13,866 nucleotides of DNA from an uncultured Thermoleophilia bacterium (GTDB taxonomy: Bacteria; Actinomycetota; Thermoleophilia; UBA2241): NCBI GenBank assembly GCA_964519555.1, contig CAZFJE010000074.1:1-13866 (forward strand), given 5' to 3'. The translations under genes were made by a program, and so were the position numbers. Positions 1 through 13,866 of this stretch are shown here, one piece after another. The stretch's first letter is position 1, and the number at the start of each line of letters is the position of its first letter. A model generated the notes under the pieces. The model searched no databases. It had not been told where the DNA came from and worked only from the letters and a program-made list of their open reading frames with translations.

Positions 1-395
1 CGGCGAGGGCCAGGGACCGTCACCCTCACCCGTCGGCCATAGTCCACCCGGACGGCGGAGACAGGGCGAAGGGGGAGTTATTGCCTCGCTGCGAATAGGG
101 ACGCCGCTCTTTGAGGCTCAAGCGCGAGCGGGACGAAGCCGACAACTAACAGTAATAAAACCAAATGCCCGAGGCGCAACATGCCATTTTGCAGGGAGTG
201 CGGAGACCACATAGCCGAGAGTGACCAATTCTGTGTCAAGTGCGGCGCGACAACGCCGTCGGGCGCATCCGGCGAGCTACAGGCTAACGATGGACGTTCG
301 CCTCGAAAGCGACGCCTAGTCACCATTATTGTTGTGGCCGTGGTACTTGCCGTAATTTTGTGTGCGCTCGTGTTCGGCCTCGGACGTTCACATCG
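1..395. repeat. Left arm of a long imperfect inverted repeat (partner 13344-13741)
   Basis: The reverse complement of 13344-13741 aligns to 1-395. Identity is 62/64 over 81-144 vs 13601-13664, including a 44/44 perfect run (101-144 vs 13601-13644). Similarity continues inward through the start codon, zinc ribbon and TM helix of the 181-945 gene. It also continues outward, with indels, to position 1, so the arm is truncated by the window. Confidence 0.85.
81..144 (+). promoter_or_regulatory. Conserved upstream block of the zinc-ribbon gene (candidate promoter/operator)
   Basis: The block lies -100 to -37 from ATG 181, and a near-identical copy sits upstream of GTG 13566. It contains a nested palindrome, ccgctc-t-ttgag-g-ctcaa-gcgc-gagcgg, at 104-131. 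gggacg (130-135) is followed after exactly 17 nt by taataa (153-158). The right copy has gggacg, 17 nt, then tactaa (13610-13615 / 13587-13592 on the minus strand). GAGG at 171-174 is a plausible SD. The promoter assignment is speculative. Confidence 0.4.
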
Positions 396-945
396 TGACG
401 GTGACGCCCTCGCAACTGTTGCCACGCCAACTGCGGCGGCCACACCAGCCCCGGCCACATCCCCGTCGGGAGCTGCCCAAGCCTCTACCAGACTCCCGGG
501 AATCGGTGGTTCAAGGACTTTCTATGACAGCGCCTACCCTGATTTTGGATTGACCGCGACCGTGGACAACACAAAGACCCTCCCGCCCGTAGAGAACGAC
601 AGTATTTGGTCCGATGTCCCCAAGTACGCGTATGGGGTGCAGCTGACAATTGAGAACACTGGACAACAGAGCTATGACGATGATCTTTCAGTTACGGCCA
701 ACAGTACCCTTGGAATCGCTGGCATCTTCACCCTCTACGACACAGATGGCAACTCCCACGGTTGGAACGACGGGGGCGATTACCCTGACGTTCTGCACCA
801 TGTGCACGTCTTGCCGGGGGAGTCGATTTCCGGTTGGGTCTATTTCGGATCAGATAACTCAATCACGCCAGTCTCTTTTGAGTTTGCTCCGAATGACATA
901 CAGGACAATGTGACCTTCAAGCCAGGTGAGTGGCAACTGCAATAG
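181..945 (+). CDS. Zinc-ribbon / single-pass membrane protein with a beta-sandwich ectodomain (tentatively DUF4352-like)
   Basis: ATG is preceded by GAGG. The N-terminus MPFCRECG...DQFCVKCG is a CxxC...CxxC zinc ribbon. A basic stretch RKRR is followed by the TM helix LVTIIVVAVVLAVILCALVFGLG and an Ala/Pro/Thr linker. The C-terminal part (YGVQLTIENTGQQ...LPGESISGWVYF) resembles DUF4352-type Ig-like domains. The domain call is from memory of the family pattern. Confidence 0.8.
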   Translation: MPFCRECGDHIAESDQFCVKCGATTPSGASGELQANDGRSPRKRRLVTIIVVAVVLAVILCALVFGLGRSHRDGDALATVATPTAAATPAPATSPSGAAQASTRLPGIGGSRTFYDSAYPDFGLTATVDNTKTLPPVENDSIWSDVPKYAYGVQLTIENTGQQSYDDDLSVTANSTLGIAGIFTLYDTDGNSHGWNDGGDYPDVLHHVHVLPGESISGWVYFGSDNSITPVSFEFAPNDIQDNVTFKPGEWQLQ

Positions 946-1052
946 TGGCAGGGGGTCGCGCTCGCTAGCGTGGGCTTGCGGCCGGGTGGCTACGCTGGCG
1001 GGACGCCGATATTAGACAGTTGCCCGGCCGCAGAGTAATGCCCCGTGGGCCA

Positions 1053-2006
1053 TCACGATGGAGGCGCGCCGAAGTCACCAACTCCGTGCCATCGGTCGCC
1101 GCCGATGTTGACATGACAGCCAGCTAGCTGAAGGCGCTGCGCAAGCTGCTGTCGCTTGGAAACGGAGTCGTCGAGACGGAGGATGTGCCGACCTGCGATG
1201 TCACTGAAGGGGCGAACCGTGCCGAGCTGAACAAGCACGGTTCTCTTAGCGTCTCTGCCCATGGCCATTCCAGCCTCAAAGATGACATTCATTCGTGCTT
1301 GAGGCGTGAAAGACTTCTCATGATCGGGGTCGGAGGATTGCTGAAAGTCAGGCAGCAGTCGCCCTTCATCGTCTGGGGTTATCAAGACCACTACCGCGGC
1401 GGCTTGGTCGAATGCTATGTCGAGAATCTCGCCGACATATGGCGTTGGATGACCCGTCCCGGCAACCGCCTCAGACCACTCAATCGGATGTAAGTCGATG
1501 GCGGACAGGAAGTCAATCAGCGAGCGTGCCGCAGCAAGGTCTCGCCCATGGACAACAAAGACGTCGCGCGCGTCGGACGGCTCGCGGCCATTCTCCCTTG
1601 CCATCTCTTCAGCGGTTGCCCTGTCCACGGAGACCTCGGTTCCATTGGATCGCACCTGTGAGGCCATTAGCTCTAAGTGACGAACGGCCGCCTCAAGGAT
1701 TCCTTTTATCTGGTTGCGGTATTCGTGAAACACATGCTGGAAGTCGTTCTTTGAATGCCAGTTGCTGCTGCTCAATACATGATCATCATAATTCATGACC
1801 CGAATGGCAAAGATATTGGTCACGTTAGTGAACTTCACGGTGAGCGGATGATTGTCACCAAAAAGCGAACGCAGTATAAGTTCTGCGTCAGTCTGCCATG
1901 CGGAGAACTGAGATGTCCAAATGTTTACTTCAAGACGTTCTAGCTCGTCCAGTGATGTCTTTATTCTTACTATGGCGTCTGAATGGCTGATTCTGTTGTT
2001 CAACAA
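1053..2006 (-). CDS. TIR-like (Cap12/PycTIR-type) domain protein with an unknown N-terminal domain; putative NADase defence effector
   Basis: The C-terminal half (aa ~148-305, nt 1092-1565) reads DVFVVHGRD...LIDFL...PIEW...VVVLITPDDEG...ARMNVIFEAGMAMG...RPFSDIAG. This matches the bacterial TIR-like nucleotide-binding family pattern (VFIVHG / LLTPDD / RQNVxFExG). The conserved Glu is retained (E244, nt 1275-1277). The start is TTG at 2006 or 2003, after GGAGA. The N-terminal ~145 aa have no recognisable motif and are AT-rich. Confidence 0.72.
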   Translation of the reverse strand: MLNNRISHSDAIVRIKTSLDELERLEVNIWTSQFSAWQTDAELILRSLFGDNHPLTVKFTNVTNIFAIRVMNYDDHVLSSSNWHSKNDFQHVFHEYRNQIKGILEAAVRHLELMASQVRSNGTEVSVDRATAEEMARENGREPSDARDVFVVHGRDLAAARSLIDFLSAIDLHPIEWSEAVAGTGHPTPYVGEILDIAFDQAAAVVVLITPDDEGRLLPDFQQSSDPDHEKSFTPQARMNVIFEAGMAMGRDAKRTVLVQLGTVRPFSDIAGRHILRLDDSVSKRQQLAQRLQLAGCHVNIGGDRWHGVGDFGAPPS

Positions 2007-2054: not shown

Positions 2055-2549
2055 TTAGGTGAGATCCAATGTTAGCGGCGTGCTCTCGTCGCTCTTGGTC
2101 TTTGGAGCCTTCTTGAAAGTCACATTTGTCTCCGACGACACCGGACTTTCGATCCGCGCCGAGCCGTCCAGTAACTTCGCGACTGTGAGAAGCTGAATGC
2201 GAGGATACGCGCTCTGCCCCTCCCATCCCGCGTGGTAGAAGCCCGCCGCCGCCGCGTCTTCGCGCATTGGCTTTGTAGGCTCCGGCATTGTGATGAGGAC
2301 ACCGATAGCGGCGCCCTCGCGTTCGATGACGCCGCGCAGCTCATGGACGTGGTGACGACCCGTGTGCCCGGCCTTCACGCTCAGAATGATTTGACTTGCC
2401 GCCTGTGCGCCGCCTTGCTCCGCAAACAGTACGTTGTATGTCGCGTTGGAGTTGAACGGCGGGTCGAGATAGACGAGGTCGACAGATTCGTCGGCTACAT
2501 AGCGCCGCAAGATGTCGAGATTGTCGCCGTAATAGAGCAGGTTGCCCAC
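2055..2549 (-). pseudogene. Internally deleted N4/N6 DNA methyltransferase remnant (motif IV region fused in frame to a C-terminal nuclease-like tail)
   Basis: NLLYYGDNLDILR...VDLVYLDPPFNSNATYNVLF is a typical MTase N-terminus with the DPPF motif. At about nt 2385-2390 it jumps directly to ...SVKAGH..VHELRGVIEREGAAIGVLITMPEPTKPMREDAAAAGFY...YPRIQLLTV. That sequence is the C-terminal REase-like tail seen in long MTases of this type. The AdoMet-binding FxGxG region is absent. The ORF stays open up to 2684, overlapping cas1, but GTG 2549 directly precedes the conserved N-terminus. Confidence 0.65.
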
Positions 2550-2601
2550 GGGGTGAACGCTATCACCGTGGCGAGACAGACGAAAGGAACGTGCGCGGCT
2601 C

Positions 2602-4155
2602 TCAAGGGGTTGCGGCCTCTGCGAGGCCTCGCAGCTTTTCCCAATGTCTCGGGTGCGGAATGTACCCCCGCCGAACCCTTGCACACATCGTCAGCGACAG
2701 CCCCGTCGCCGCCTTCATCTTGCGCAGCGACACACCCTCAAGCAGCGGCAGTATCTCGCGCCTGAATACAGCCGGGTCCGGCTTGTCGTGGGTTCGATCC
2801 CATTCGATTTCCTCGCGTCGCCGTTGTGCGGTGGCCTCACCGAGTTTGCGCCGCACTTCCGCGCTATCCATCGGTTCGCGACCCTCCGCGCGCATCTTGG
2901 CAAGCGCGGCAACCCCCGACGCCACGAATGCTATTTCCAGTTGTTGCCGTTCGCCGGGCAAGCAGTCGTCACAGAATTGGCGCTCGCTGTTCGGCAAAGG
3001 TCCGCCGCAAGTTGCGCAGGTCGCGGCCGGTCTGCGCGTCTGCGAGGATATCGGTCTCGTCGGCTTGCGGCGCACGGTGTCGCGCCCGCTGCTGCGGTTT
3101 GCCTGAGTTAGCGGCGTCGGTAGGCGTTCGATCCGCGATGGAGACTTCGAGGCGAGCATGCCCGCGACGTTCTCGACGACCGGCGCAATAGCGCGCGCCC
3201 ATTGAGTAGTCGTCTCCGCGAGGGTGTGCGTCAGGGGCGCAAGTACGCGGCAGACACCTTTTCTGGTCTCAACAAAGTCTTTAGCGGTAAAGGTGCGTGC
3301 CGCGAGCAAGTCGAGTAGATAGGCGTCGACCTGCGGGCGCACCGTTTCCATTAGGTCGAGCACTAATGAGTCGCGGGATTTCTGGTCCGCGTGAAATACT
3401 CCTAACCCCGGATCGAGCCCGCAGGCTAAACAGGCAAAGCGCGTCTCTGCCTCAAGCAATGCGTAGAGGTAATTGAGCATCGCATTTGCGGGATTAGCTG
3501 CGCGACGCGGCGACCCGGTAATCGGCGAGCCACGCTGCCCGAAATTACGCCAATGCTCAGGAGTTGATTTCTCGTCTTTCTTGGCAAAGCGCAGCGTGAT
3601 GTCTCGCCAGACTCCCCAATACGCCGCAGCGCCCGTCGATTCGGCCGTAAGCATTTCCGGCAAAGAAGCGGCATTATCGGCCATTATCCTCGCGGCGGTT
3701 AATTCGGCGGCAGCATTATCCGGGAATATCGACCGCGATAGATTAATTTCCTGACCGGCTAGCTTCGCGCAAAGCACATAGCGCGCTATTTTGAGGCCAG
3801 CGGTATTTGTCGGGGCGAGCGCCAGCGCGCGACGTAGGCGCGGATCGTTTAGCCCATAATTGGCGGAGGCCGCAATTACCTCGCCATCACGGTCGATCTG
3901 CAGAAATGCGATTCCGGCGTCGGTTAACCAGCGCAGCGCCTCGAGGCTAATTGCGCCCTCGTGGCCGACAATAATTAGCCGCTTTATGCCGACAAGTGCT
4001 TTCGCGAAGCTGCGCTCGCGACGAAAACGCCCGATGCCATCGGAGACAATCAGGCTGCGATTGCGAACCCGAACCTGGACGCCGTAGCCGTCGACCACGC
4101 AGACACCGCCCGCGCAGTCGAGGCTTTGGAAGGTTGCGCTAACATAGCTCTGCAT
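2602..4155 (-). CDS. cas1: Cas1-family integrase (stand-alone, casposase-like) with a C-terminal zinc ribbon + HTH extension
   Basis: Cas1 hallmarks are present: TAESTGAAAYW (E172), RRAANPANAMLNYLYALLEAE, and GLDPGLGVFHADQKSRDSLVLDLMETVRPQVD (H255, D267/E270). The N-terminal region (SLIVSDG...IKRLIIVGHEGAISLEALRWLTDAGIAFLQIDRDGEV) matches the Cas1 beta-domain pattern. The C-terminus has CATCGG...FCDDC (aa 380-398) and an HTH-like LRKMKAATGLSLTMCARVRRG (aa 477-497). An SD-like GAAAGGG precedes the ATG. Confidence 0.9.
   Translation of the reverse strand: MQSYVSATFQSLDCAGGVCVVDGYGVQVRVRNRSLIVSDGIGRFRRERSFAKALVGIKRLIIVGHEGAISLEALRWLTDAGIAFLQIDRDGEVIAASANYGLNDPRLRRALALAPTNTAGLKIARYVLCAKLAGQEINLSRSIFPDNAAAELTAARIMADNAASLPEMLTAESTGAAAYWGVWRDITLRFAKKDEKSTPEHWRNFGQRGSPITGSPRRAANPANAMLNYLYALLEAETRFACLACGLDPGLGVFHADQKSRDSLVLDLMETVRPQVDAYLLDLLAARTFTAKDFVETRKGVCRVLAPLTHTLAETTTQWARAIAPVVENVAGMLASKSPSRIERLPTPLTQANRSSGRDTVRRKPTRPISSQTRRPAATCATCGGPLPNSERQFCDDCLPGERQQLEIAFVASGVAALAKMRAEGREPMDSAEVRRKLGEATAQRRREEIEWDRTHDKPDPAVFRREILPLLEGVSLRKMKAATGLSLTMCARVRRGYIPHPRHWEKLRGLAEAATP
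2619..2634 (+). repeat. Perfect 16-bp palindrome ctgcgaggcctcgcag, followed on the plus strand by cttttcc (terminator-like in the plus orientation)
   Basis: Read directly from the sequence. It lies in the last ~10 codons of cas1. An overlapping alternative hairpin ggcctc-tgc-gaggcc sits at 2614-2628. A T-run follows only on the plus strand. Confidence 0.35.
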
Positions 4156-5480: not shown

Positions 5481-7085
5481 ATGGAAACCGACGAACGCAG
5501 ACCTCACCACGAGGCGCAATCGGGCGAGCAGGCTCCCCCCAGGCCGACCGGCCAGCCGGCCATGGTCGCCACGGGCAGCCTGCAGCCTCACCCGCTAAGC
5601 CTGGCCATCTACGGAGACGAAGCGGTCGACCTCGAGCTGGCTGCCAGCATCGCACAGCACGGCGTCCTCGAGCCACTCTCGGTCCTTGAGGACGGCACCA
5701 TCGTCTCTGGTCACCGCCGCTGGCGGGCAGCCCAGGCCGCCGGCCTTGCCAGTGTGCCGGCCACAGTCGTGAGCTTTGACGACCCCCTTGACGAGCACAC
5801 GGCCCTCATCGAACACAACCGCCAGCGCGTCAAGAGCTACAGCCAACGCATGCGTGAGGCCGACCAGCTCGAGACAATCGAGCGCGAGCGGGCCGAGCAG
5901 CGTCGGCGTCATCACGGCGGCACCGCCCCGGGGCGTTCGGCAGACACTGCCGGCAACATTGCCGGCAGTGAGGCCGGCGAGACCCGTGACAAGGTCGCCG
6001 CCGCAGTCGGCATGAAGGCGCGTAGCTTTGCCAAGGTGCGCAGCGTCTACAAGGCTGCCCAGCAGGGCAGCGAGGTCGCAGCCAAACAGCTGAGCGCCCT
6101 GGATGCCGGCGAGATCACGATCAACGCCGCCTACCAGGATGTGCGTCGCGAGGAGGCCGGACGCTGCACCACAGGCCTGGTCGATCCCGACGCAGCACCC
6201 CAAGCGCCGGAGCAGGTTACCAGCGAGCTCGGTGACCTCTGGATACTTGGCGAGCATCGACTTGCTTGCGGCGATGCCACCGACGCAGCGCTGGTGGACC
6301 GTCTGATGGCCGGCGAGCGGGCCGTGCTGATGGCCACCGACCCTCCCTATCTGGTCGACTACGACGGCGGCAACCACCCGCAGTCCTGGCGGCACAACGG
6401 CGAACACTCAGACCCGGAGACTCAGACCAAGCACTGGGATGCCTACGTCGACCAGCGTAGCGCCGAGGATTTCTACAGCGCCTACCTGGGCAGCGCCCTG
6501 GCCGAGGCACTCACTGAGCGTCCGACCATCTACCAGTTCTTCGCCATGATGCGCTTCGAGACCGTGCTGGCCGCTTGGCGGGCGAACGGCCTGCTTGCAC
6601 ACCAAGTTGTGATCTGGCACAAGAGCCGGATCGTGCTCGGTCGTAGCTGGTACATGTACGACTACGAGCCCTGCCTGGTCGGCTGGATCGCGGGCCGCCA
6701 GCCGGAGGCCGAGCGTCGTCCGCCGGCCAACGCCGCCGCCGTCTGGACCGTCGCCTCGACCGAGGGCAACGAGGCCACGATCTCGAGCCATCCCACGGTC
6801 AAGGCCGTCGAGCTCATTCGCCGGACGATTGCCTACCACACCCAGCCCGGCGAGCTGCTCTACGAACCCTTCGCCGGCTCGGGCACCGCCATAGTCGCCA
6901 GCGAGATGACCGGCCGGCGCTGCTATGCCGTCGAGCTTGCCCCGCTCTTTGTCGACCAGGCGGTGCTGCGCTGGCAGCGCTTCAGCGGCAAGCAGGCGAC
7001 CCTGCAGGAGAGTGGCCTCAGCTTCGCCGAGGTGGCCGCCCAGCGCGCCACAGGCGACCGTTCGGCATCTGCAGCGAGGCCCTGA
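5481..7085 (+). CDS. ParB-like nuclease domain fused to a beta-class N4/N6 DNA methyltransferase
   Basis: The N-terminus LQPHPLSLAIYGDE...HGVLEPLSVLEDGTIVSGHRRWRAAQAAGLASVPATVV is a ParB/Srx-type domain with the GHRR motif. The MTase part reads LGEHRLACGDATD...LMATDPPY (motif IV, aa 286-290), then HPTVKAVELIRR and EPFAGSGTA (motif I, aa 464-469). Motif IV before motif I is the beta-class order. GAGGTG SD precedes the start. Confidence 0.88.
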   Translation: METDERRPHHEAQSGEQAPPRPTGQPAMVATGSLQPHPLSLAIYGDEAVDLELAASIAQHGVLEPLSVLEDGTIVSGHRRWRAAQAAGLASVPATVVSFDDPLDEHTALIEHNRQRVKSYSQRMREADQLETIERERAEQRRRHHGGTAPGRSADTAGNIAGSEAGETRDKVAAAVGMKARSFAKVRSVYKAAQQGSEVAAKQLSALDAGEITINAAYQDVRREEAGRCTTGLVDPDAAPQAPEQVTSELGDLWILGEHRLACGDATDAALVDRLMAGERAVLMATDPPYLVDYDGGNHPQSWRHNGEHSDPETQTKHWDAYVDQRSAEDFYSAYLGSALAEALTERPTIYQFFAMMRFETVLAAWRANGLLAHQVVIWHKSRIVLGRSWYMYDYEPCLVGWIAGRQPEAERRPPANAAAVWTVASTEGNEATISSHPTVKAVELIRRTIAYHTQPGELLYEPFAGSGTAIVASEMTGRRCYAVELAPLFVDQAVLRWQRFSGKQATLQESGLSFAEVAAQRATGDRSASAARP

Positions 7086-7739: not shown

Positions 7740-8204
7740 GTGGAGAAAGATCCCGCCAAGAACGACCGCCGCCGGTCGCGTCGTGCACGCAAGCTCGGCG
7801 AGGACGCTGCGTGCATTCTGTGCGGTTACCATCGTTGCCTCACAGGACTGAAGCAGGTGGACCGGCGCTTCCTTGAGGAGCACCACCTTCTTGGCTGGGT
7901 AACAGACGACACGCTCACCGCCTCTCTGTGCCGTAACTGCCACGCCGAGGTGACCGAGGATCAGCTCACTGACGGCTTCGACTTCAGGTCCGCAGAGCGG
8001 TCCGCCGAAGACGAGGCGAGGTACCTTCTGCTGGCAAGCGGGCGCTTCCTGTCGAGGCTCGGGCCGAGAATGACGGATGTCGCCTATCGGTTAGACTCCG
8101 GGACATGTCTGTCAGCGCCCGCGACATCCGCCCATGAGCCTCGAAAAGATCGCCCTGCGCGCCTACGGCGAACCAAGCGCCGGGGCGCGGCGCTCTACCA
8201 GTAG
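7740..8204 (+). CDS. HNH endonuclease
   Basis: CILCG...LEEHHLLG...LCRNCHAEV shows a CxxC...HH...N..CxxCH arrangement typical of the HNH/His-Me finger (nt ~7812-7964). The GTG start comes 11 nt after the preceding stop. The 3' end overlaps polB by 71 nt. Confidence 0.72.
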   Translation: MEKDPAKNDRRRSRRARKLGEDAACILCGYHRCLTGLKQVDRRFLEEHHLLGWVTDDTLTASLCRNCHAEVTEDQLTDGFDFRSAERSAEDEARYLLLASGRFLSRLGPRMTDVAYRLDSGTCLSAPATSAHEPRKDRPARLRRTKRRGAALYQ

Positions 8205-11200
8205 GTCGCGCAAGGGCTTCAAGCCGCGCCACGTTCTTATTTTCGACACGGAGACCACCATCGACGCCGCTCAGGCGCTGCTCTTCGGGTCGTATCGCTA
8301 CGTGCGTATCCGCTGGCAGGGCAATACGCCGACTCTCTCCACGGTCGAAGAGGGCCTGATCTACGCCGACGAGCTGCCCGATGAGAACGCCGAACGCTTT
8401 ACCGTCCTGCAGGACTACCGGGCAAGCCACCCGGCGGCGCTCGATCCCACCTACAGCCACGGCCTGCCGGTCGCGCTCAGGTTCTACTCCCGCCGCGAGT
8501 TTCTCACGGAGATGTTCTATCCGGCGGTCTACGAAAGCAGGGCTTTGGTCGCCGGCTTCAACCTGCCCTTCGATCTCTCTCGCCTGGCCGTCGACTGGTC
8601 GGCGGCACGCAAGGCATTCGCGGGTGGATTCTCGCTGGCCGTCTTTGAGTACGAAAAGGACGGCGTCTGGCGCGAGAACCGCTTCAAGCCCCGCATCGTC
8701 GTTAAGTCAATCGACAGCAAGCGTGCGCTCAAAGGCTTCGCCGGCACCTTCTCACCCGACGAGATCGACACGATCCCCGAGGGCGAGACCGAGCCCGCAG
8801 AGGGCTACATCTTTCGCGGCAACTTCCTCGACCTGCGCACGCTGGGCTTCGTGCTCACCGACAAGGGCCACACTCTGGAGTCGGCGTGTGAGGCCTTCGG
8901 CGTTGAACACGGTAAGACCAAGCCCAACAAGCACGGCGAGATCACACCCGAGTACATCGACTACAACCGCCGCGACGTGCTGGCCACAACCGAGCTGCTT
9001 GAAAAGACACTTGCCGAGTACTACCGCCACCCGGTCGACCTGCAGCCCACGCAGGCCTACTCGCCGGCTTCGCTCGGCAAGGCCTACCTGCGCGCCCTCG
9101 GTATCGCTCCGGTACTCAACCGCCAGTCTGACTTTCGTAAGGACGTGCTCGGCTATGCCATGCAGGCCTACTTTGGCGGGCGGGCCGACTGTCGCCTGCG
9201 TCGCCTGCCCGTGCCGGTCGCGTATACCGACTTCACGAGCATGTACCCGTCCGTCAATGCCCTTATGGACAACTGGCGGCTGCTCACCGCGAAGCGCATC
9301 GAGGTTCTCGACGCCACACGCGAGGTTCAGGAGCTGCTTGCCCGCGTAACTATCGACGACTGCTTTGCTCCCGAGCTGTGGCCGCAGCTGCGTGTGCTCG
9401 TCAAGGTGCGGCCTTCAGGTCAGCCCCTGTCTACCCGCGCCCGCTACGACCGTCGCCGCGTCCCCGCCTCCGCCAAGGCACGCAATAAGGAGCGCCAGGG
9501 CCAAGGCTGGCAGATCGGCATCAACTACCTGACAAGCGAGAAGCCGCTGTGGCTCGCCCTGCCCGACCTCATCGCCGCGAAGATCCTAGGCGGCAAGGTG
9601 CCCGAGGTGCTCGAGGCTTGGAACCTCGTGCCGGTCGGCAAACAGTCCAGCCTCTCGGCGGTCGAGCTGCGCGGCTCGATTGCGGTTGATCCAACCAAGA
9701 CCGACTTCTTTTGCACAGTCATCGAAGAGCGCCAGCGCGTGCGCGCGAAGGCCAAGGCCGACGGCCGTGAGAACGATCCGCTGGAGGGTTTCCTCAAGGT
9801 GCTCGCCAACTCGACAAGCTACGGCGTCTTTGCCGAGTTCGTGCGTCACGAGCTGACCGGCAAGCGCACCGAGTCGGTGCGTGTCTGGGACACCGAGGGC
9901 GAGAGTTTCGCCGCAAAGACGCACGCCCCCGAGCTGCCGGGCGAGTACTGCTTCCCGCCGCTTGCCGCCTTCATCACCTCGGCGGCGCGCCTCATGCTGG
10001 CCTTGCTCGAGGCCCGCGTCACAGAGCGCGGTGGTAGCTACGTCTTTTGCGACACCGATTCCATGGCGATTGTGGCAGACGAGGAGCCCCACCTCATCGA
10101 ATGCCCCGGCGGACCGCATCTGACCGACGAGGGCAAACCGGCCGTGCTCGCCTTAGGCTGGGATGAGGTCGACGAGATCCGCGAGCAGTTTAACCGGCTC
10201 AACCCCTACGACCGAAGCGCCGTGCCAGCCCTCGTTAAGATCGAAAGGGAGAACTTCGACGACAAGGGGCGGCGCGTGCCGCTGTTCTGCTACGCGATCA
10301 GCGCCAAGCGCTATGTGCTCTTCTACAAAGACAAACGGGGAGAGCTGTCAATGCCCAAGGCCTCCGAGCACGGCCTCGGCCACCTGCTCAACCCTTACGA
10401 CCCCGACGAGGGCAACCGCATCGAAGACGGCGCTGCAGCCGATGGCAAGAGCAAGCCCAACTGGATCAAGGAAGCCTGGCACGACATCCTCGCCAAGGAA
10501 GTGACCTTGCGGGCCGCCAAGTCGCCTTCGTGGTGGCACGAGCCGGCCCTTGTTCGCATCACGATCTCAAGCCCTGCGGTGCTCGAGCCCTTCGGGGGCA
10601 TGAACACGGTCAAGCCCACCTACCGCGAGCGCGTGAAGCCCTTCAACTTCATGCTCTCGGCGCGGATCGAGGATTTCGGCTATCCGCTCGAGGTGACCGA
10701 CCCTCACCACTTCCATCTGGTCACGCGCTACACGCGCAAGCCGCGCGAGGCGCTCAAGGTCACCTGGTTCAACCGCTACGACGGCAAGCCGTACCGCGTG
10801 ACCATCGGAAGTTCGTCCGACCTTGCCGGCCAGGCCCGCATCCTCACCTACGGCGAGATGCTTGAGGACTACCGCTACCGGCCGGAGTACAAAAGCACTG
10901 CGCCGGACGGACAGACTTGCGGCCGGGAGACATCCGGTCTGCTAGGTAGGCGGTCGATTGAGGCTCTCAAGTTCATCTATGTCGGTAAGGAGTCAAACCG
11001 CCTCGAGGAAGCGCAGCAAGGCCTGCTGCACGATGAGGAAGAGGCGCTCAGCGAGTTCGACGATCCGCGCCACAGCGACTTTTGCGAGTTCGTGCTGCCG
11101 GTGCTTGCCACGATGCCGCTGTCGGTGTTGGCCACAGCGACCGGGCTACATCCGAGCACACTCAAGAGGATTCGAGCCGGGACGGCGCAGCCGCGTACTA

Positions 11201-11436
11201 ACAACGAAGACGCCCTCTGGGTGGTCGCCATCGAACACGCGCGGGCGGAGCTTACGAGGCGCGGTTTTCAGCTGCCTGAGACGCACCTTGCGGCGTTGCG
11301 CGTCTACATCGAAGCGATGTCAGCCCAGCCGCGGCAGTGCCCAGTCTGCGGGGAGCCGATGGTCAGCAGGCGTCAAAGGTATTGCAGCAACAGATGCCGC
11401 CAGCGAGCGGTACGTGCTCGGTCTCGAGCGAACTGA
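8134..11436 (+). CDS. polB: Family B DNA polymerase with 3'-5' exonuclease domain and a ~350-aa C-terminal extension ending in HTH + zinc ribbon
   Basis: Exonuclease motifs: ExoI IFDTETT (D38/E40, nt 8245), ExoII GFNLPFDLSRL, ExoIII YIDYNRRD. Polymerase motifs: motif A YTDFTSMYPS (D366, nt 9229), motif B KVLANSTSYG (K555, nt 9796), motif C YVFCDTDS (D640/D642, nt 10051), and KxY AKRY (K725). The C-terminus has LSVLATATGLHPSTLKRIRAG and CPVCGEP...RYCSNRCRQRA. Confidence 0.92.
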   Translation: MSLEKIALRAYGEPSAGARRSTSRSRKGFKPRHVLIFDTETTIDAAQALLFGSYRYVRIRWQGNTPTLSTVEEGLIYADELPDENAERFTVLQDYRASHPAALDPTYSHGLPVALRFYSRREFLTEMFYPAVYESRALVAGFNLPFDLSRLAVDWSAARKAFAGGFSLAVFEYEKDGVWRENRFKPRIVVKSIDSKRALKGFAGTFSPDEIDTIPEGETEPAEGYIFRGNFLDLRTLGFVLTDKGHTLESACEAFGVEHGKTKPNKHGEITPEYIDYNRRDVLATTELLEKTLAEYYRHPVDLQPTQAYSPASLGKAYLRALGIAPVLNRQSDFRKDVLGYAMQAYFGGRADCRLRRLPVPVAYTDFTSMYPSVNALMDNWRLLTAKRIEVLDATREVQELLARVTIDDCFAPELWPQLRVLVKVRPSGQPLSTRARYDRRRVPASAKARNKERQGQGWQIGINYLTSEKPLWLALPDLIAAKILGGKVPEVLEAWNLVPVGKQSSLSAVELRGSIAVDPTKTDFFCTVIEERQRVRAKAKADGRENDPLEGFLKVLANSTSYGVFAEFVRHELTGKRTESVRVWDTEGESFAAKTHAPELPGEYCFPPLAAFITSAARLMLALLEARVTERGGSYVFCDTDSMAIVADEEPHLIECPGGPHLTDEGKPAVLALGWDEVDEIREQFNRLNPYDRSAVPALVKIERENFDDKGRRVPLFCYAISAKRYVLFYKDKRGELSMPKASEHGLGHLLNPYDPDEGNRIEDGAAADGKSKPNWIKEAWHDILAKEVTLRAAKSPSWWHEPALVRITISSPAVLEPFGGMNTVKPTYRERVKPFNFMLSARIEDFGYPLEVTDPHHFHLVTRYTRKPREALKVTWFNRYDGKPYRVTIGSSSDLAGQARILTYGEMLEDYRYRPEYKSTAPDGQTCGRETSGLLGRRSIEALKFIYVGKESNRLEEAQQGLLHDEEEALSEFDDPRHSDFCEFVLPVLATMPLSVLATATGLHPSTLKRIRAGTAQPRTNNEDALWVVAIEHARAELTRRGFQLPETHLAALRVYIEAMSAQPRQCPVCGEPMVSRRQRYCSNRCRQRAVRARSRAN

Positions 11437-11740: not shown

Positions 11741-12295
11741 CTAGACGTTGGCCAGGATTTCGGCTCGCTTTGTTTCGTACTCGTCCGCGCTAAGAAGTCC
11801 TTGACTCCGCAGCGATGCGAGGTCGCGAAGGCGCCGCGCAACGAGCGGCTCCCCCTCGTTCCTCACGGTCGCCACGACGGGGCGATGGGTTGGTGAGCGA
11901 ACCGTGCGCACAACAGCAGGAATTGCTAGTGCAATAAATAAGCCGAACAATATTATTGTCACTAATTCTAAGAATAATGCTGTCCCATGATCTAGATACG
12001 AACTTCTCCCACCTTCAAGAACAGAAGTCACAGACGGTACTGTCGCAAGCGACCTTATGTAAAAAAATAATGTCAGACAAATTACAGCGAGTATAGATAG
12101 GGTGACGGCCAAGACAGACGATATCGTGGATTTCACGAGACCCGTCATGTCCAGCTTGCGCGGTCTATTTGCCCGACTCGTTTGCAGACTCGGAGGGCGC
12201 ACGACCGGCGCGCTCGGTACGAGCGCCGTTCCGCACTTGCGACAGAACAAGTCCCCCGTAATGGGTGGACTGCTACACTGCGGACAGAGAGCCAT
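11741..12295 (-). CDS. Zinc-ribbon membrane protein with a C-terminal SHOCT domain
   Basis: ATG 12295 is preceded by GAGGA. MALCPQCS...LFCRKCG is a zinc ribbon. There are two hydrophobic helices (ISSVLAVTLSILAVICLTLFFYI and ALFLELVTIILFGLFIALAIPAVV). The C-terminus LRDLASLRSQGLLSADEYETKRAEIL matches the SHOCT pattern. The ORF stays open to 12346, but the paralogues start directly at the zinc ribbon. Confidence 0.8.
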   Translation of the reverse strand: MALCPQCSSPPITGDLFCRKCGTALVPSAPVVRPPSLQTSRANRPRKLDMTGLVKSTISSVLAVTLSILAVICLTLFFYIRSLATVPSVTSVLEGGRSSYLDHGTALFLELVTIILFGLFIALAIPAVVRTVRSPTHRPVVATVRNEGEPLVARRLRDLASLRSQGLLSADEYETKRAEILANV

Positions 12296-12423
12296 GATTG
12301 TCCTCGCGGTTGGTCGTATCTGTCTCGTTCTCGACTCCGACGGCAAAGAGCCCCATTCGTTGATATGAGTTTCCTTGGTGGTTGTCGCGCTGGCTAAGCA
12401 ACGTCGGGTCGGCGCGTTCTTTC

Positions 12424-13566
12424 CTAGGGTCGAGTGGCGGGAATGGTGACGCCGCTATCTCCCACCGCCCACCCGTGGTTGACATCCGCGAAGGCCACTG
12501 CCTCGGGTTCGTTTGTGCCTGTACTTTGGAGGGTCCAATGGGTGCCACGGTCGCTACTTGAAAGGATGACGCCGCCGGTGGTGTTGTCAGCGCCCACGGC
12601 CCATCCATGCGAGCTATCGGCGAAAGAGACACTGTAAAGCTGGGCAGTCGTACCTGAGCTCTGCACATTCCAGGTAGCGCCGCCGTCGGTGGTGCCAAAT
12701 ATGGTTCCGTTGTCGCCCACTGCCCAGCCGTGCGAAGCATCAGCGAAAGAGACACCACGGAGCGTGCTTGCGGTACCCAAGTCTTTCGCGTCCGGGCCGA
12801 AGCCATGCTGCACGTTCCAGGTAGCGCCGCCGTCGGCGGTGGCAAGTATGGTGCCGTTGTCGCCCACCGCCCAGCCGTGCGAAGCGTCGGAGCAGGTGAC
12901 GGCGTTAAGGCCCGGAGTCGTGCCCGGGTCCTGGGCGCCCCAAGTGGCGCCGCCGTCGGTGGTTCCCAAGATGACGCTCGAGCGTGTCGAGGGGTCCACG
13001 CCCACCGCCCAACCGTGAGACGGATCGGCAAAGGAAATACCGCTGAGGAAACTCGTCGTGCCCGGGTCCTGGGCGCTCCAAGTTACACCACCGTCGGTGG
13101 TTACCAAGATGACGCTCGCACCCGTCGTCGAAGTGTCATCGCCCACCGCCCAGCCGTGCGAGCGATCGACGAACCAGACACCAAAAAGCTGAGCTGTCGT
13201 ACCCGAATTTTGCGCCCCCCAGGTAGTGCCGCCGTCGGTGGTGGCAAGGATTGTGCCACCGTCACCCACTGCCCAGCCGTGAGAAGCATCGCCGAAGCAG
13301 ACACCATGAAGCGTTTGGGTAGTCGGGTGGGCAACGCGATAATGATGCGAATGTCCCATGCCAAACACGAGCGCACACGCGATGGCAGCAAGTACGACGA
13401 CAACGACACCAATGAGGATGGCGCGGTGTCGTCTTCGGGTGGGGCGGGCTTCGCTGGCCTGAGGCTCGCCGGGCACAGCGGACGGTGTTGCAATCGCGGC
13501 GCCACATTTAGCGCAGAATTGGTCGCTTTCCACCGTGAGGTTGCCACACTGTCTGCAAAATGGCAC
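12424..13566 (-). CDS. Zinc-ribbon / single-pass membrane protein with a seven-bladed beta-propeller ectodomain (BNR/Ycf48-like repeats)
   Basis: GTG 13566 (VPFCRQCG...DQFCAKCG) aligns codon-for-codon with ATG 181 of the left paralogue. The TM helix is AILIGVVVVVLAAIACALVFGMG. Seven repeats of D.SHGWAVG....I..TTDGG.TW..Q follow. The listed ORF extension up to 13806 is Arg/Gly-rich and lies in the conserved non-coding block. Confidence 0.85.
   Translation of the reverse strand: MPFCRQCGNLTVESDQFCAKCGAAIATPSAVPGEPQASEARPTRRRHRAILIGVVVVVLAAIACALVFGMGHSHHYRVAHPTTQTLHGVCFGDASHGWAVGDGGTILATTDGGTTWGAQNSGTTAQLFGVWFVDRSHGWAVGDDTSTTGASVILVTTDGGVTWSAQDPGTTSFLSGISFADPSHGWAVGVDPSTRSSVILGTTDGGATWGAQDPGTTPGLNAVTCSDASHGWAVGDNGTILATADGGATWNVQHGFGPDAKDLGTASTLRGVSFADASHGWAVGDNGTIFGTTDGGATWNVQSSGTTAQLYSVSFADSSHGWAVGADNTTGGVILSSSDRGTHWTLQSTGTNEPEAVAFADVNHGWAVGDSGVTIPATRP
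12427..13314 (-). repeat. Intragenic tandem repeats (7 propeller blades, about 40-49 codons each)
   Basis: The SHGWAVG / NHGWAVG motif occurs seven times. The blade copies starting at 12670 and 12817 (147 nt apart) share 64/69 nt over the first 69 nt in my hand alignment. Confidence 0.8.
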
Positions 13567-13741
13567 GCAACGCCTCCGACGCAGGGTTAGTACAACATAC
13601 TGTCGGCTTCGTCCCGCTCGCGCTTGAGCCTCAAAGAGCGGCGTTCCTCTTCGCAGCGAGGCAAGAAACACCCCTTCGGCGCGTCTCCGCCGCCCACGGT
13701 GACGGTGGGGGGTGACGTTGTCCCGACGGCCGGACGCCGAG
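13344..13741. repeat. Right arm of the long imperfect inverted repeat (partner 1-395)
   Basis: See the left arm. The inner limit is where ...tgtgcgctcgtgtttggcatgggacattcgcatc stops matching 361-394. The outer limit is set only by the left window edge, so the true arm may be longer. Confidence 0.85.
13601..13664 (-). promoter_or_regulatory. Right copy of the conserved upstream block (candidate promoter/operator)
   Basis: 62/64 identical to the reverse complement of 81-144. 13601-13644 is a perfect 44-nt match. The block lies -35 to -98 from GTG 13566. The same nested palindrome maps to 13614-13641. Confidence 0.4.
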
Positions 13742-13866
13742 CCCCCGATCCGTCGGCACCCGTTGCACCCGCTCCATCCTGTCTGTGCCTGAGCCCCCGA
13801 ACCCAACCCCCGCAGCCCCGCCCGTACGCGGGCTCCCGGCCCTCGTGCGACGACCGTAGGGCAAGG

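Follow-up and report, generated by a model that had tools for sequence, protein, structure and literature searches.

The stretch of DNA considered here, the window, comprises 13,866 nucleotides of contig CAZFJE010000074.1 (GenBank assembly GCA_964519555.1) from an uncultured Thermoleophilia bacterium and is framed by two inverted arms, each of which runs into an inward-facing gene for a membrane protein. Between the arms lie the genes of a casposase-type Cas1 and a family B DNA polymerase (PolB), together with a small Cys/His-rich open reading frame (ORF) upstream of the latter, a gene set that, as annotated from sequence, is that of a casposon (Table 1). The CRISPR adaptation module is proposed to descend from casposons, of which, to our knowledge, few bacterial ones have been described in detail. 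The Cas1 sequence matches two PDB entries deposited under the name CRISPR-associated endonuclease Cas1, 4n06 and 6opm, the second of which we take to be the Methanosarcina mazei casposase. PolB, for which no PDB chain was matched by sequence at E <= 0.01, is conserved beside Cas1 in all the relatives described below, where homologous small ORFs occupy the same position upstream of PolB; the small ORF is a candidate HNH nuclease, as typical for casposon families 2 and 3. Neither a CRISPR-like direct-repeat array in the window nor any other cas domain in the 11 ORFs scanned was found. A preliminary description of the window had offered three readings of the arms, namely terminal inverted repeats (TIRs) of a mobile element, paralogous host genes homogenised by gene conversion around an invertible segment, or a shared regulatory leader.

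The window corresponds, in reverse orientation and with one mismatch, to bases 44-13909 of a 14,098-bp JGI contig (Ga0455670_0040352, L004), which was reached via a look-up of its Cas1 protein. The look-up of the left terminal gene led to three short contigs from other samples (L001-L003) at 99.9-100% identity, of which L001 adds 206 bp to the left of window position 1. An inverted-repeat search recovered the repeat at the coordinates first described, pairing 37-144 with 13601-13708 (108 nt, 85%), and returned further inverted arms at 171-248/13499-13576 (73%) and 324-417/13321-13414 (71%); in line with this, a MAFFT alignment shows window 1 to ~400 to be collinear with the reverse complement of ~13340-13741, with few indels. 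The best block (81-144 versus 13601-13664, 62/64 identical) and the similarity across both start codons (ATG 181 and GTG 13566) and the zinc-ribbon and transmembrane (TM) peptides were reproduced as first reported, as was the abrupt stop past the TM helix, where identity (46%) is at chance level. The arm is indeed cut by the window, as had been proposed: L004 and L001 carry the repeat outward past it, and window 13742-13866, unpaired within the window, matches sequence to the left of position 1. The extended arms measure ~600 bp (595 alignment columns, 74% identity, E = 2e-105 by BLAST), and their outermost 98 bp are 100% identical to each other, reaching the same base at both ends of L004. 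Outward extension therefore gave a larger repeat, whose outer edge of identity and flanking duplication are not reached in L004 or L001; exact-pattern scans for the terminal sequence, which could have yielded the outer flanks, gave 0 matches in viral contigs and 0 in JGI metagenome contigs. Likewise, the initial view that the repeat is built from the 5' modules of two genes is right about the gene modules (~215 bp per arm) and understates the remainder, more than half of the repeat being non-coding and lying outward of the genes.

An assembly artefact is unlikely, because the left arm was assembled independently in three other samples (L001-L003) and L020, a fourth independent contig, again contains a right-arm-specific stretch (67/67 nt). 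A number of contigs from other samples are interrupted at perfect repeat stretches, as repeats would predict. The symmetric ends of L004 are not to be equated with the ends of the element, since an assembler that collapses a perfect inverted repeat yields symmetry by construction; they were considered as true termini and dropped, L020 placing the canonical terminus ~140 bp further out.

The coding part of the repeat consists of one module shared by the two terminal genes, comprising a cytoplasmic zinc ribbon, a basic linker and a TM helix. In the left gene it takes up codons 1 to ~72 (window 181 to ~397) and is followed by a unique ectodomain with a weak DUF4352 match; in the right gene it lies at ~13345-13566 and is followed by a YCF48/BNR beta-propeller ectodomain. 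Shine-Dalgarno sequences (GAGG or GGAGG) precede ATG 181 and GTG 13566 by 6-7 nt. This specific module is hardly ever found elsewhere among 1.8-5.8 billion proteins: a module profile found essentially one other protein (P0241), a word-indexed search gave two matches, and in an exhaustive search of 1.8 billion representatives only two clusters cover the whole module at E < 1e-10. Proteins that in general terms combine a zinc ribbon with a TM helix and a variable ectodomain are common across bacteria (1755 profile matches at E <= 0.001). Look-ups of the right-end protein with three alternative starts returned no record, and a homologue search with the full protein was swamped by generic YCF48/BNR propellers and gave no near-identical copy.

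The protein P0241 is encoded on L020, a contig from another JGI sample that is a sister of the left arm (84% identical over 700 bp), which allowed a three-way alignment of left arm, right arm and L020 to be scored segment by segment. The outer block is identical in the two arms (98/98) and matches L020 at 82/98 positions in either; its 16 variable sites all have left and right agreeing against L020, a pattern of concerted evolution of both ends. The adjoining spacer (~170 bp, with indels) is 71% identical between left and right, 79% between left and L020 and 75% between right and L020, and here L020 agrees now with the left arm, now with the right, depending on the site. Next inward, a 64-bp block matches L020 at 59/64 positions in both arms, and the 5' untranslated region (5'UTR) shows 49% (left-right), 65% (left-L020) and 74% (right-L020) identity. 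Within the coding sequence, L020 is a sharp recombinant that switches from right-arm type to left-arm type at a breakpoint near window 248. Specifically, the 67 nt encoding the zinc ribbon are identical between right and L020 (67/67) and agree at 50/67 positions both between left and right (75%) and between left and L020, whereas left versus L020 identity is 96% in the linker, 95% in the TM segment and 95% after the TM helix, against 64%, 73% and 46% for left versus right and 65%, 73% and 44% for right versus L020. This recombinant indicates that sequence patches move between arm types or between co-circulating elements. The two coding modules differ at a pS of 0.58 (0.85 in the zinc ribbon) and a pN of 0.20; with synonymous sites near saturation and a low pN, they are old paralogues under purifying selection rather than recently homogenised copies, and both are probably functional. 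Homogenisation between the arms is patchy, not end-to-end.

The element belongs to a large family. Its Cas1 has more than 3,600 homologues at E <= 1e-10, the closest 79% identical, and several of them reside on contigs of 120-737 kb. A Cas1 search of GTDB genomes gave two loci in one uncultured Actinomycetes metagenome-assembled genome, which fits a bacterial host, and a Cas1-based locus search of metagenome contigs gave only two distant loci (36-40%). Six long-contig loci and the two loci from the Actinomycetes genome were fetched, with Cas1 proteins 67-84% identical to that of the window. TIRs were found in L009 and L010 (322 nt, 100%), L011, which equals L012 (382 nt, 100%), L013 (64 nt, 91%) and L014 (~216 nt), where the outer 116 nt are 98% and the inner 99 nt 85% identical, the same outside-to-inside gradient as in the window element. 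The 13,027-bp contig L017 begins and ends with family termini. In five relatives the element is flanked by 14-bp target-site duplications (TSDs), exact or 13/14, all starting with GTCAA (GTCAAGACGAGCTG, GTCAAGACGAGGCC, GTCAACAGGAGCCC, GTCAAGCGGCAC(C/G)A and GTCAACCGGTGGGC), and in four of the five flanks examined CTAG or CTAT lies 17 nt upstream of the TSD. The termini of the relatives read GGGATAGGGGATAGGG...GAAACG. One and the same casposon occupies L009 4011-15772 and L010 3913-15675 (99.9% over 11.6 kb, 322-nt perfect TIRs). Its two copies are oppositely oriented between short flanks that they share (38 nt and 137 nt), and their wider genomic contexts differ, an arrangement that fits either inversion between the TIRs or independent insertions into a repeated target. 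Additionally, termini belonging to further copies, degenerate or solo, lie directly against L009, L010, L014 and L008 (14801-14902).

Cargo in the terminal slots of these relatives varies and includes BNR genes, CheB/CheR and, in L014, an ORF of 319 aa whose end falls within the TIR. In L017, CheB/CheR and SpoIIE-domain genes lie directly beside Cas1, and chemotaxis-type signalling genes thus appear to be casposon cargo. YCF48/PSII_BNR propeller genes adjoin casposon termini in L011 (668-1669, 2010-2990 and 12529-13434, all three within the element and facing outward), L008 (15047-16294) and L009 (2792-3172); given this recurrence, genes with propeller ectodomains seem to be favoured terminal cargo in the family.

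Two loci connect the window element to these ends. The first is L018 (Cas1 78% identical), which carries on its PolB side an inward gene whose first ~75 residues are 58-63% identical, at the amino acid level, to both modules of the window and which bears a different ectodomain, of the Pfam DUF4850/DUF7937 type. This gene is followed by the same SHOCT gene and by PolB, making the locus syntenic with the right end of the window. Of the other loci with a Cas1/PolB block, which the preliminary description had suggested checking for the flanking modules, L018 carries the module at this one end; the TIRs of the other relatives lack it. The second is L020, which runs ~600 bp further out than the left arm of the window element. 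About 140 bp past the point where L004 stops, it shows GGGGATAGGGGATAGGGACGAACGAAACG, preceded by GGTCAATCGCGCA (GGCGGTCAATCGCGCA), that is, a family terminus next to a GTCAA target-type flank. This terminus lies ~520 bp upstream of the start codon of the L020 gene, and outside it follow ~470 bp of unrelated flank including a partial gene. Moreover, the outer 130 bp of L020 contain the palindrome GCTCGCCGCGCTTCGCGCGGCTCGC, which is also present in the L009 TIR. By analogy with L020, the arms of the window element are predicted to continue for ~140 bp to a similar terminus, which would give a total arm of ~730 bp.

We therefore favour, with a probability of roughly 0.8, the first of the three original readings, in which the arms are the long TIRs of an integrated casposon (Cas1, PolB and an HNH-like ORF; ~14.1-14.4 kb) of an actinobacterial lineage; five relatives with TIRs of 64-382 bp and 14-bp TSDs, together with the L020 terminus, support it. 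Several observations weigh on the other side. No matches resulted from BLASTN searches with both arms against the fetched relatives other than L020, and since the arms lack BLAST similarity to the TIRs of L008-L014, the connection to the family's ends rests on L020, synteny and short motifs. The 17 bases by which L001 exceeds the end of L004 (ACTCCCCGAATAGGACG) contain neither GTCAA/TTGAC nor the double GGATAGG terminus and align only loosely with L020. L004 ends inside the repeat, so the element's own outer edge and TSD are not captured, and the right side has no extension. The small Cys/His-rich ORF gave no HNH profile match in Pfam, NCBIfam or PADLOC, and sigma-70 promoter and terminator scans of both arms gave nothing above shuffled sequences and no promoter consensus.

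Under the TIR reading, the repeat comprises, from outside to inside, a predicted canonical terminus (GGGGATAGGGGATAGGG) ~140 bp past the contig ends, the 98-bp block with phased CACGRG motifs, the looser spacer, the 64-bp block, a ribosome-binding site and the first ~72 codons of an inward membrane-protein gene, and it ends where the two genes switch to unrelated ectodomains. Cas1 would recognise the termini and integrate the element via a 14-bp staggered cut, and the phased motifs and the 64-bp block may act as protein-binding or regulatory sites. By the simplest history, the present arms would have arisen when one terminal ~0.7 kb, including the 5' part of a gene, was copied to the other end. 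That gene would have been a zinc-ribbon/TM gene like the one conserved at the PolB side in L018, and the copying would have fused the membrane-anchor module to a second ectodomain. Afterwards, the non-coding parts would have been kept similar by function and by patchy conversion between the arms, while the coding part drifted at synonymous sites.

The alternative that survives best, although we regard it as improbable, differs from the TIR reading only in where the functional TIR stops. It would confine the TIR to the outer non-coding part and explain the similarity further inward by paralogous cargo genes with a duplicated promoter, leader and signal-anchor, in the sense of the third original reading; these genes would lie at both ends because the ends are the cargo slots of the family. 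The coding similarity is indeed confined to the protein level, with synonymous sites near saturation, the TIRs of the relatives are shorter (64-382 nt) and without the module, the cargo of their terminal slots varies, and in all three arms the 64-bp block exceeds the adjoining segments in conservation. Nevertheless, both arms align collinearly and without a break from the outer block through the spacer, the 64-bp block and the Shine-Dalgarno sequence into the module, for which a single duplication of a whole end is the simplest account, and the spacer, at 71% identity, is still far above saturated neutral divergence.

Far less probable, and largely refuted, is the second original reading, according to which two chromosomal zinc-ribbon paralogues flank a Cas1/PolB island and are subject to gene conversion, making the 13-kb segment invertible. 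Its gene-conversion component stands, as the non-coding segments (98/98 in the outer block) and the L020 patch show exchange between arms, and one related element is found either way round between the same pair of short flanks; the generic zinc ribbon/TM/variable ectodomain architecture being widespread would also suit host genes. Its host-gene component is contradicted by the position of the L020 terminus and target-type flank, outside the gene, by the synteny of L018, where the module is terminal and inside a related element next to SHOCT-PolB, and by the practical confinement of the specific module to these elements. Both window genes lie inside the element, their coding parts are not homogenised, and L004 and L017 begin and end in terminal repeats, like whole-element contigs. 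Least probable of all is a free linear replicon, plasmid- or virus-like with a protein-primed PolB, in which the contig ends would be physical and the 98-bp inverted terminal repeats homogenised by panhandle replication: the perfect repeat does extend to the very ends of the 14,098-bp contig on both sides, the Pfam match of PolB is to a family of organellar and viral protein-primed polymerases, and the perfect long TIRs of relatives (322 and 382 nt) suggest a copying mechanism, but L001 continues 17 nt past the contig end, symmetric ends are expected from assembler collapse, all long-contig relatives are integrated with TSDs, and L020 continues for ~140 bp to a terminus followed by unrelated flank.

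Two features within the non-coding part of the arms could be functional sites. The first is the 64-bp block, which sits 37-100 nt upstream of both start codons, is 92-97% conserved among the left arm, the right arm and L020, against 49-79% in neighbouring segments, and holds an imperfect 30-nt palindrome (CCGCTC-T-TTGAG-G-CTCAA-GCGC-GAGCGG). RNA folding of the block with the leaders of both arms gave z scores of +0.4 to +1.2, no stabler than shuffled sequences, and an Rfam scan of the whole window (E <= 1) returned only a chance snoRNA-like match elsewhere. The block is absent upstream of the L018 homologue and is thus not universal in the family. Its conservation and position are most economically read as those of a putative promoter/operator common to both terminal genes; a subterminal site for a transposition protein would fit equally well, and the shared regulatory leader of the third original reading is plausible for this block. 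The second feature is a set of four same-strand CACGRG motifs within 60 nt of the outer block of each arm, three of them in exact 14-nt phase, compared with a background density of 0.1 per 100 nt. L020 retains this phasing despite variation in the intervening bases, and the motifs may represent protein-binding iterons. Their 14-nt period equals the TSD length of the family.

Table 1. Features of the window and of its arms (negative positions lie to the left of window position 1).
Feature	Position	Strand	Remarks
Left copy of 98-bp outer block	-188..-91		outside the window; from the extended alignment
CACGRG motifs, left arm	-184..-122		outside the window
Left intermediate non-coding TIR part	1..80	+	71% to right arm, indels
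Left 64-bp conserved block	81..144	+	62/64 to right copy, 59/64 to L020
Left 5'UTR	145..180	+	Shine-Dalgarno GAGG at 171-174 kept; 49% between arms
Left terminal gene	181..945	+	254 aa, inward; identical protein on three other contigs
Hairpin motif	951..1031 (core 988-1022)	+	stem GCGGCCGGG/CCCGGCCGC, loop TGGCTACGCTGGCGGGACGCCGATATTAGACAGTTG
CAP12/Pycsar-type TIR-domain protein	1053-2006	-	PADLOC candidate system PDC-S35, 4.7e-29
Truncated methylase/Mrr-type ORF	2055-2684	-	209 aa; overlaps Cas1 3' end at 2602-2684
Cas1, casposase-type	2602..4155	-	517 aa; Pfam Cas_Cas1 1.2e-37; TIGR00287 108 bits
387-aa ORF	between Cas1 and ParB-methyltransferase fusion
ParB-methyltransferase fusion	5481-7085	+
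Small Cys/His-rich ORF	7740..8204	+	CxxC...HH...NCH; upstream of PolB
Family B DNA polymerase	8134..11436	+	1100 aa; Pfam DNA_pol_B_2 (PF03175) 3.4e-8
Zn-ribbon-TM-SHOCT protein	11741..12346	-	probable start ATG 12292; between PolB and right terminal gene
Right terminal gene	12424..13566	-	380 aa from GTG 13566, inward
Right 5'UTR	13567..13600	-	Shine-Dalgarno GGAGG at 13573-13577
Right 64-bp conserved block	13601..13664	-	from repeat search and alignment
Right intermediate non-coding TIR part	13665..13811	-	from alignment
Right 98-bp outer block, inner 55 nt	13812..13866	-	other 43 nt past the window, to the contig end
CACGRG motifs, right arm	13842-13847		also L004 5-10, 19-24 and 33-38, beyond the window

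Among the other genes between the arms (Table 1), the CAP12/Pycsar-type TIR-domain protein may be an anti-phage effector carried as casposon cargo. In the neighbouring ORF at 2055-2684, an N-terminal motif of methyltransferases (DPPF) is combined with a C-terminus of the Mrr/NA-iREase-like kind; its homologues are intact and longer than 473 aa in L019 (82% nucleotide identity over 206 nt) and 270 aa long in L014, and the window copy is probably an internally deleted remnant. At its C-terminus (residues 1065-1090, window 11326-11403), PolB carries a CxxC...CxxC zinc ribbon with weak YacG/treble-clef matches. The SHOCT protein is the third zinc-ribbon/TM protein of the element, has a counterpart in L018 (1066-1590, 74% nucleotide identity) and seems to be semi-core in the element's sublineage. 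A scan of the window for a tRNA as integration target found none.

On its inner side, the left terminal gene slot is bounded by a hairpin motif with a 36-nt loop (TGGCTACGCTGGCGGGACGCCGATATYAGACAGTTG) and no relevant Rfam match. Copies occur in L018 (3-55), in L009/L010 (4354-4406), again in L010 (16080-16135) and in L014 (14154-14211), and they are 86-94% conserved between elements with otherwise unalignable non-coding DNA. Every copy is close to a terminus, whether on the Cas1 or the PolB side, and points the same way with respect to it; the L009 copy spans the inner boundary of the TIR, and contig L018 begins at the hairpin. The motif may delimit the terminal cargo slot or serve as a site of recombination.

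Among known systems, the window element comes closest to casposons, especially those of the bacterial family 3 and the archaeal families 2 and 4, with which it shares a 12-16 kb block between TIRs that holds Cas1, a small Cys/His ORF and a polymerase of family B. The bacterial casposons of family 3 include StrAlb-C1 of Streptomyces albulus (16.2 kb, TIR 116 nt, TSD 18) and AceAut-C1 (20 kb, TIR 602 nt, TSD 15), and the M. mazei casposons of the archaeal families 2 and 4 have TIRs of 31-59 or 225 bp and 14-bp TSDs; overall, published TIRs span 25-602 nt with a median TSD of 15 (PMC4046053). The 14-bp TSDs of M. mazei casposons have a conserved 5' tetranucleotide, and these elements form tandem insertions, leave solo TIRs and insert in either target orientation (PMC4779613). 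The relatives described here similarly show tandem or solo termini beside elements and either orientation at the target, and their TSDs share the 5' motif GTCAA where M. mazei has CGCA. Furthermore, their termini (GGGATAGGGGATAGGG...GAAACG) resemble the archaeal family 2 termini GGGATATAGGTAAGTCAAAAAAACG (GGGATATAGG...AAAAAACG) listed in the supplement of PMC4046053. What differs is that the repeat (~600 bp observed, ~730 bp predicted) enters two inward genes, taking in the block upstream of them, the ribosome-binding site and the first ~72 codons, and that it is not uniform, its segments ranging from 100%, 71% and 97% identity to similarity at the protein level only. Gene 5' modules inside TIRs are not described in PMC4046053 (with its supplement) or PMC4779613, an absence that is no proof of novelty. 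As TIRs of up to 602 nt have already been described, the element is an unusual but not unprecedented variation on the casposon; it stands out in that its arms are predicted to be among the longest known, that the repeat contains gene starts, and that its ends clearly evolve in a concerted and mosaic way.

Two further systems invite comparison. As in protein-primed linear replicons (adenovirus, PRD1, linear plasmids), the terminal copies are identical within the element and diverged between elements (98/98 versus 82/98); unlike in these replicons, no gene for a terminal protein was found, members of the family are integrated with TSDs, and homogenisation is patchy. In the eukaryotic MuDR/Mutator element, TIRs of ~215 bp serve as promoters for two convergently transcribed genes, and in both MuDR and the present element the terminal repeats lie directly upstream of inward genes. 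The MuDR transposase belongs to an unrelated family, the MuDR TIRs are not known to extend into shared coding sequence, and the promoter role of the present arms is putative. If it applies, one repeated sequence could, as in MuDR, drive expression from both ends regardless of the insertion site.

A more speculative extension, which we consider conceivable yet doubtful, is that the long TIR constitutes a portable expression-and-anchoring cassette, in which a promoter/operator block, a ribosome-binding site and a zinc-ribbon/TM signal-anchor are repeatedly fused to new ectodomains. The ectodomains so far found on the module are DUF4352-like, a YCF48/BNR propeller and DUF4850-type. If this were so, recombination between arms and between co-circulating casposons would swap extracellular domains at either end, and the terminal repeats would not only be the substrate of transposition but would also allow cargo ectodomains to be captured and displayed. 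The strict identity of the outer blocks would then be the footprint of a replication-coupled process that copies one end onto the other, as in the panhandle model, in which TIR panhandles are proposed as casposon replication origins (PMC4046053).

For the family as a whole, the element and its relatives reveal an actinobacterial lineage, represented by thousands of metagenomic Cas1 homologues, that has well-defined ends, with GGGATAGG termini and 14-bp GTCAA duplications. With the arms as likely casposon TIRs, terminal repeats can reach 0.6-0.7 kb and take in the starts of cargo genes. The two ends evolve in concert and swap patches. For annotation, repeats of this kind explain why assemblies break exactly at the ends of such elements. 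Finally, these loci offer concrete sequences for studying how bacterial casposases recognise their ends and choose their targets, and how the identity of long TIRs is maintained.

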